A stretch of DNA of 64,000 bases from Escherichia coli (GTDB lineage: Bacteria; Pseudomonadota; Gammaproteobacteria; Enterobacterales; Enterobacteriaceae): NCBI RefSeq assembly GCF_051903065.1, contig NZ_CP178438.1, one strand, 5' to 3'. A model generated the notes under the pieces. The model did no database searches, was not told the origin of the DNA, and saw nothing but the letters and a program-made list of their open reading frames with translations. Within the stretch, counting starts at the first letter, position 1, and each line of letters opens with the position of its first letter. Of this stretch, positions 8,028 through 8,825 are shown piece by piece. The translations under genes were made by a program, and so were the position numbers.

Positions 8028-8825
8028 TTATCCCGGTTGTCACCCGGATCATAGTCACTTGATGTGACTATGATCCGATTAATACTCTCTCCGCTACGCA
8101 GTGTTGTAGATCAATTGCGCACTATCATTGAAATAATTACCTGCTAGTGATTATTTCAACCTACTGAATTTCATCTAATTTTTTTCACTCCATGGCAAAT
8201 TAGCCATTTCAAACATTATCATGGCTGATATTTTCCGTAGTCAGGTTTAATGTTTTAAAAGTGCTGTGGGAAAGTGAACAAAGAGTTCCGTAAGCGTTGA
8301 TGCTATGGGCGGTTAAATAAGTAATCCGGGTTCATTTTTTTGCAACTGGCGTTGATTACATTGCATAAATATCCGTGTCTCCAGACGCTATATAAAAACC
8401 TGAAGACATGAATGCGTTATTTACTCAGGTAATTTCAATGCGTTAAAAGAAAGCTGGCAATCCAATTGCCAGCTTAAGTCGAAACAAGGAGACTCGATAT
8501 TTAAATCGGATTACATTTTAACTTTAGTAATATTCTTCAGAGATCACAAACTGGTTATTGATAACTTATTCTTGGGCAGTAATCCGCAAACGTTAACTTT
8601 TTGTTTACTATTTACAAGATGATAACAACCAGGAATCTTACTTAGGATCAATATATGGAGTGCGTGATGGATAAATCTGAAGTATTGATTAGTGTTAATA
8701 GACGTATTAGTTCACGAAGGGCAAAGTTCTTATAGGCGTTTACTATATTGAACAACGATTCGGACAAGGATGTAAATAATGAAAAGGATGACATGTTCGA
8801 AACGATAACGGCTAAGGAGCAAGTT

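Follow-up and report, generated by a model that had tools for sequence, protein, structure and literature searches.

The 798-bp hdeD–gadE intergenic region of an Escherichia coli acid fitness island: a gadE promoter and leader region that includes the antisense RNA gene arrS

Introduction

Escherichia coli and Shigella survive stomach acid by means of glutamate-dependent acid resistance, a system whose master switch is GadE. The DNA upstream of the gadE gene is comparable to the upstream regions of csgD and flhDC, which are also long, AT-rich and silenced by H-NS, and which also combine several promoters or long leaders with inputs from many transcription factors and sRNAs. The csgD and flhDC regions serve other genes and other regulators, while the gadE region differs in that it embeds an sRNA gene, arrS, which is antisense within the leader. 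A second sRNA encoded in cis in the acid fitness island, GadY, belongs to the gadX–gadW locus. Both GadY and ArrS are sigma-S-dependent sRNAs encoded opposite the mRNA of an acid-resistance regulator, and in both cases duplex-directed processing by RNase III raises the output of this regulator. The two sRNAs are unrelated in sequence, and GadY overlaps the 3′ UTR or intergenic part of gadX–gadW, while ArrS lies opposite a 5′ leader.

The gadE control region with ArrS is already known and has been thoroughly studied in E. coli K-12. In the literature it is presented as the gadE "sensory integration" promoter, which responds to more than 10 regulators (Ma et al. 2004 and Sayed and Foster 2009, as cited in PMC3708157). 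The region upstream of gadE is a convergence point of input signals. Here, we compared this system with the corresponding part of the window, by which we mean the whole 64-kb stretch of E. coli DNA that was analysed. The identity of the region and of arrS with their K-12 counterparts, as well as the anatomy of the region, come from this analysis, while the transcription starts, the regulators, the H-NS occupancy and the mechanism of ArrS come from the K-12 literature. The data indicate, with a probability that we put at about 95%, that positions 8028–8825 of the window are a non-coding control region of gadE(-mdtEF), which is a signal-integrating promoter array that includes ArrS.

Results and Discussion

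The region upstream of gadE closely matches its K-12 counterpart

The boundaries of the region were determined from the sequence and the map of open reading frames. [quoted passage not shown] It is preceded by hdeB (6426–6764) and hdeA (6868–7200), both on the minus strand, and mdtE follows from position 9692 on the plus strand. Hence, hdeD and gadE are located on one strand inside the hdeBA/hdeD/gadE/mdtEF synteny, and RefSeq gives the same gene order for K-12 MG1655 and for a strain that is 100% identical over the region. The flanking genes, the match to K-12 and the published description (PMC3708157) identify it as the "sensory integration" promoter and leader of gadE in the acid fitness island.

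A sequence-only reading of this DNA had described an AT-rich non-coding stretch of about 800 bp, and this description is borne out by the 798-bp gap and its GC content of 0.361, as compared to 0.510 for the window. Equally AT-rich 798-bp segments make up 1.3% of all such segments in the 64 kb. The same reading had called the stretch unusually long, which also proved correct, as the hdeD–gadE gap is the longest interval of the window that contains no open reading frame of at least 80 or at least 100 amino acids. Its ORF-free length is 720 bp when counted to a TTG-extended gadE frame and 798 bp when counted to the true start, which is nearly twice that of the next longest intervals (403–430 bp).

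The comparison with the K-12 upstream region, which had been proposed as a check for indels, showed that the counterpart at 3657568–3658365 has the equal length of 798 bp, and that the two sequences differ by six substitutions (at positions 8031, 8191, 8607, 8619, 8722 and 8795) and no indels, which gives 99.2% identity. The flanks, the length and the position of every mapped element are the same as in the K-12 sensory integration region (PMC3708157), and the six substitutions are the difference between the two. No functional difference is expected from them. A Megablast search found the region in 5413 of 5426 complete E. coli genomes, with 95–100% identity and always on the chromosome.

Two of the six substituted positions, 8722 and 8795, are located in the short gadE leader, and both fall inside predicted leader stems. 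K-12 MG1655 has T and A at these positions, respectively, while the sequence studied here and seven other Escherichia sequences have C and G. Judging from this distribution, it is the laboratory reference, K-12 MG1655, that has the derived alleles.

Published transcription starts in conserved parts of the region, and reported regulator inputs

To place the published promoters on the window, the K-12 offsets of the gadE transcription starts were converted by arithmetic into window coordinates. The starts given in PMC3708157 are located at −21, −124 (T1), −324/−317 (T2) and −566 (T3), which correspond to positions ~8805 (a minor start), ~8702, 8502/8509 and ~8260, respectively, all on the plus strand. 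The sequence around each of these starts is identical or nearly identical to that of K-12, and lies within conserved blocks. A multi-promoter character of the region had been suspected from the sequence, and it is supported for the orthologous K-12 region, from which the region studied here differs at 6 of 798 positions, by the starts mapped there (PMC3708157).

The most distal promoter, P3, lies in a conserved block at 8192–8268 (plus strand; 94% identity to non-coli species), in which the runs 8198–8234 and 8241–8252 are invariant. The hexamers read from this sequence are a putative −35 element CTGATA at 8225–8230 and a putative −10 element TTTAAT at 8247–8252. The invariant P3 run also contains a GadX/GadW-like box at 8221–8240, with two mismatches to the ChIP-exo motif (PMC4918353). 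Six matches to this motif were found in the 64-kb window, as compared to 2.8 expected. Other good matches are located at 15285–15304 (plus strand), 18179–18198 and 18203–18222 (both minus strand). These sites near 15.3 kb and 18.2 kb presumably belong to the gadW/gadX/gadA regulatory regions. Transcription from the T3 start gives a long 5′ leader of ~566 nt (8260–8825, plus strand), while the P1 promoter forms together with the 124-nt T1 leader a block at 8620–8825 (plus strand) that has 94% identity to non-coli species and contains long invariant runs. A GAD box in P1 and autoactivation by GadE have been reported (PMC3708157). A scan with the GAD-box motif (TTARGAWWWWAAATA, at most three mismatches) gave 31 matches against 24 expected, which is not above chance, and a scan with consensus promoter elements recovered none of the published promoters, with four sites against 3.2 expected, that is, at the level of chance.

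An H-NS-silenced character, with which the low GC content of the region agrees, had also been suggested by the sequence-only reading. For the orthologous K-12 region this is supported by two lines of published data. First, strong repression of the gadE region by H-NS was reported, which is antagonised by ArcA (PMC3708157). Second, IPOD-HR data revealed a large protein-occupancy domain over hdeAB–hdeD–arrS–gadE, which was gone in a Δhns ΔstpA strain (PMC11230228).

The antisense RNA ArrS is encoded within the long gadE leader

The curated RefSeq record of K-12 contains the ncRNA gene arrS (b4704) on the minus strand at 3657985–3658054, and all 70 nucleotides of it are identical in the window, where arrS occupies positions 8445–8514 on the minus strand. 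Hence, the sequence, strand and position of this 70-nt sRNA, which is antisense in cis to the T3 leader of gadE, are the same as described for ArrS (Aiso et al. 2011, 2014, as cited in PMC6755755 and PMC6212723). The 3′ end of arrS is marked by a terminator with an 11-bp GC-rich hairpin at 8451–8475 on the minus strand, followed by the U-tract UUUCUUUU, and this terminator was the sole informative output of the scan for consensus promoters and terminators. The predicted fold of ArrS has a free energy of −20.2 kcal/mol (z = −3.84). The identity of arrS is 97% across non-coli species, and its conservation block opens exactly at 8445, the 3′ end of ArrS. Antisense or leader RNAs had been suspected here by the sequence-only reading, and the suspicion was well founded, as arrS is annotated in K-12 and is 100% identical in the window. 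That the sequence by itself would not give the limits of such RNAs, as this reading supposed, did not hold for ArrS, which is delimited by identity to b4704, by the terminator hairpin with its U-tract and by the edge of the conservation block. A substitution in the terminator stem, found in two lineages, leaves a G·U pair on the ArrS strand and an A·C mismatch on the mRNA strand, which could be a small hint of a strand-specific signature of ArrS.

The ArrS promoter was assigned to 8515–8549 on the minus strand from its sequence, with a putative −35 hexamer TTGTGA (8549–8544), a 17-nt spacer and a putative −10 hexamer TAAAGT (8526–8521). In all eight Escherichia sequences that were aligned the −35 hexamer is invariant, and the −10 element retains C at position −13, which is a sigma-S-type feature. 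This arrangement of hexamers, with the C at −13, fits the dependence of ArrS expression on sigma-S and GadE, which is reported in PMC6755755. The T2 starts (8502–8509) are located inside arrS, with an overlap between T2 and ArrS of only 6–13 nt, and therefore the full ArrS target is present on T3 only. The P2 and ArrS promoters interleave and face each other, which may cause interference between them. According to PMC6755755 and PMC6212723, ArrS has complementarity to the longest of the gadE leaders, its overproduction leads to higher acid survival, and its action is linked to cleavage by RNase III. The cfa mRNA has been described as a trans target of ArrS (PMC6755755).

The search of positions 7000–10000 against Rfam 15 with a permissive E-value gave no family match in the gadE upstream region, and Rfam contains no ArrS model. 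Likewise, the PGAP annotations of other E. coli genomes list no feature in the region. Because of both facts ArrS is invisible to routine annotation by PGAP and Rfam, and can be overlooked.

Three modules of the region are conserved across Escherichia species

To compare the region between species, one genome per species was scanned with GadE for the hdeD–gap–gadE arrangement. This arrangement was found in two genomes of the E. coli clade, in E. coli E69, E. whittamii and E. albertii, and in Escherichia sp. E1V33. The E69 genome bears the label E. coli, and its GadE protein shares only 94% identity with the query. In seven loci, and across six Escherichia lineages, the length of the gap ranges from 720 to 798 bp and its GC content from 0.33 to 0.36.

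An alignment of eight Escherichia sequences was used to calculate the identity between the window and the four non-coli species, which are E. albertii, E. whittamii and two more Escherichia lineages outside E. coli, for consecutive parts of the region. The values are 0.53 for 8028–8191, 0.94 for the P3 block (8192–8268), 0.31, with 49% gaps, for a variable spacer in the T3 leader (8269–8444), 0.97 for arrS (8445–8514), 0.85 for the area of the ArrS promoter and T2 (8515–8575), 0.61 for 8576–8619, and 0.94 for P1 with the short leader (8620–8825). For comparison, the coding sequence of hdeD has an identity of 0.88 (0.67 at third codon positions), and that of gadE 0.89 (0.75 at third codon positions). 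The islands of 0.94–0.97 exceed the 0.88–0.89 of the coding sequences, which means that the three modules are more constrained than the flanking proteins. As judged from this alignment, purifying selection has acted on three discrete modules, which are the P3 block, arrS, and P1 with the short leader. The footprint thus divides the region into three modules under constraint and two spacers that are dispensable, and it could serve as a guide for promoter engineering and help to interpret natural variants as well as insertions of IS elements.

The footprint also bears on the possibility that most of the region is functionless AT-rich filler of a horizontally acquired island, in which the short proximal promoter alone matters and the length is accidental. 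Poor conservation of 8028–8191, aside from a hairpin located there, and of 8269–8444, about half of which is deleted in sister species, agrees with such a reading, as does the fact that one strain tolerates an IS1 insertion at ~8359–8367. Against it, the P3 block, located 560–630 bp from the ATG codon, has 94% identity across species and arrS has 97%, while synonymous sites reach 67–75%, and the length stays within 720–798 bp in every lineage. In addition, only about one third of the anaerobic activity was left when the P3 region was deleted (PMC3708157). The cross-species footprint already largely refutes the view of the region as filler, which we regard as very improbable.

Natural disruptions of the region were also observed. 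In E. coli NR1430, an IS1 element (positions 640–1409 of locus L012) is inserted in the variable spacer, at the equivalent of ~8359–8367, with a 9-bp target duplication. This element sits between the P3 start and arrS, and so parts P3 from gadE. In strain H30 (NZ_CP103559.1), the first 232 bp of the region remain, and they are located beside a transposase of the Tn3 family.

Two assemblies were left out of the comparison as contaminated. A contig assigned to "Flavobacterium paronense" (NZ_JAUFQN010000010.1) contains hdeD (98% identity) and, across a gap of 797 bp, a gadE gene riddled with frameshifts, while a 466-bp contig assigned to "Streptomyces sp. DH24" (NZ_JARVKW010000110.1) also contains E. 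coli hdeD–gadE sequence. The presence of E. coli hdeD–gadE sequences in these two non-enterobacterial assemblies almost certainly results from contamination or long-read errors.

The region is unlikely to contain a protein-coding gene

The open reading frames of the region were examined for a conserved protein-coding gene. The sequence-only reading had found no credible ORF there, only a 63-codon frame on the minus strand, and this assessment was upheld. The frame, at 8648–8839, runs 14 nt into gadE, and it was rejected as a gene because a 1-bp indel throws it out of frame, with stop codons, in all four non-coli Escherichia species, and because it was never called as a protein. The longest ORF lying inside the region, of 48 codons, is no longer than those in composition-matched shuffled sequences (mean 56 codons, SD 15).

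The remaining candidate is an upstream ORF of 26 codons (MECVMDKSEVLISVNRRISSRRAKFL) at 8655–8735 on the plus strand, and a small conserved gene might be hidden in this frame, as a leader peptide of the P2 and P3 transcripts, or else in the 63-codon frame. The upstream ORF is open at equal length in 8 of 8 Escherichia sequences, with an invariant ATG, an invariant stop codon and an invariant AGGA motif 8 nt upstream of its start. However, its variable sites are distributed over the three codon positions as 3/4/4, as compared to 13/8/75 for gadE and 18/3/113 for hdeD, and the majority of the changes are non-synonymous. Moreover, the upstream ORF lies over the P1 promoter, and the two-thirds of it that are invariant, on the 3′ side, correspond to the core of P1 together with the T1 start, which explains its conservation at the DNA level. 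Six small ORFs of the interval were looked up by exact match in a collection of 15 billion proteins, and none was there (0/6); neither the peptide of the upstream ORF nor its coordinates have an entry in the sORF tables from acid-stress Ribo-seq. The upstream ORF is also absent from the curated K-12 annotation, and a literature search for a gadE upstream ORF gave irrelevant matches only. The remaining small ORFs of the interval decay in sister species. Altogether, the search for a conserved protein-coding gene by ORF conservation, codon-position pattern and protein look-up found none, and a gene hidden in either frame, that of the 63-codon frame being out of frame with stops in the sister species, is improbable; in particular, the upstream ORF is unlikely to be a gene. 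Only slightly less doubtful is that the upstream ORF, which is present only on leaders derived from P2 and P3, may be translated, such that the act of translation rather than the peptide would tune the gadE output. If so, a possible route would be the remodelling of a predicted pairing between the end of the upstream ORF (8726–8735) and the gadE Shine–Dalgarno sequence.

The extent of the non-coding region also depends on the start codon of gadE. Initiation at an in-frame TTG at 8748 would give the 201-aa protein found in some older annotations, and would leave only 720 bp as non-coding. The corresponding in-frame ORF (8748–9353) exists, and the 201-aa form has been deposited for CFT073 and other strains. 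On the other hand, a 1-bp indel near 8757 puts this extension out of frame, with several stop codons, in 4 of 4 non-coli species, while conservation holds from the ATG at 8826 on. Together with the strong AAGGAG motif located 6 nt ahead of this ATG, the frameshifted extension supports 8826 as the gadE start. The 175-aa form is also the one annotated both in K-12 and by PGAP. The published start at −21 is incompatible with initiation at the TTG, while T1 (~8702) fits either start codon. Hence, initiation at the TTG appears most improbable, and the 798-bp non-coding region, which ends at the ATG, is retained.

The short gadE leader and a hairpin downstream of hdeD

The T1 leader contains GGA motifs at 8762, 8768, 8786 and 8816, the last of which is part of the gadE Shine–Dalgarno sequence AAGGAG (8814–8819). 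Binding of CsrA to the gadE leader with a KD value of 138 nM has been reported (PMC11210196). The predicted fold of the T1 leader, in which 8726–8735 pairs with the Shine–Dalgarno sequence, has a z value of −1.7. The 37 pairs in the consensus fold of this leader are all invariant or almost invariant, and for this reason covariation neither supports nor refutes the structure.

At the opposite end of the region, a hairpin with a 14-bp stem and a 5-nt loop is located at 8045–8077 on the plus strand, 18 nt past the hdeD stop codon, and it is not followed by a U-tract. While the sequence around it is only ~53% identical, the stem is kept in 8 of 8 Escherichia sequences, with both partners of three pairs exchanged (GGATC/GATCC to GCCTC/GAGGC). 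The hairpin is probably a stem–loop that forms the 3′ end of hdeD mRNA or stabilises it.

A model of gadE control by the region

The anatomy of the region, combined with the K-12 literature, is consistent with the following sequence of events. H-NS and StpA would coat and silence the AT-rich DNA, and the silencing would be relieved by the activators EvgA, YdeO, GadX/GadW, ArcA and GadE, so that at least three promoters could fire. P3 (~8260), P2 (~8502/8509) and P1 (~8702) would then give rise to gadE mRNAs with leaders of ~566, 320 and 124 nt, respectively. The sigma-S- and GadE-dependent promoter on the minus strand would produce the 70-nt ArrS (from 8514 to 8445), which is fully complementary to the longest of these leaders. 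Cleavage of the duplex of ArrS with this leader by RNase III, which has been reported, would result in more GadE, which would constitute a positive loop. The short leader may additionally be bound by CsrA, and GadE is reported to act together with RcsB at the GAD box of gadA.

Neighboring features in the window

Outside of the control region, the ES205 sRNA model (RF02754) matches positions 9471–9542 in the gadE–mdtE spacer with a score of 105 bits. This match corresponds to the 3′ part of the K-12 sRNA GadF (b4718), which maps to 9452–9542 on the plus strand. In the same spacer, PGAP annotates on the minus strand, at 9354–9632, a 92-aa "hypothetical protein" (WP_001205329.1; positions 4327–4605 of locus L002), which is antisense and overlaps GadF. 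The curated K-12 record does not contain this protein, which is probably a spurious call.

In ECNB21-M121, the region of which is 100% identical to the one studied here, a gene for an ATP-binding protein of a heme ABC transporter is located beside yhiD (positions 1–636 of locus L002; about 1–5600 of the window), while K-12 has slp–dctR at this place. This arrangement suggests a variant of the acid fitness island with an inserted heme-uptake cluster.
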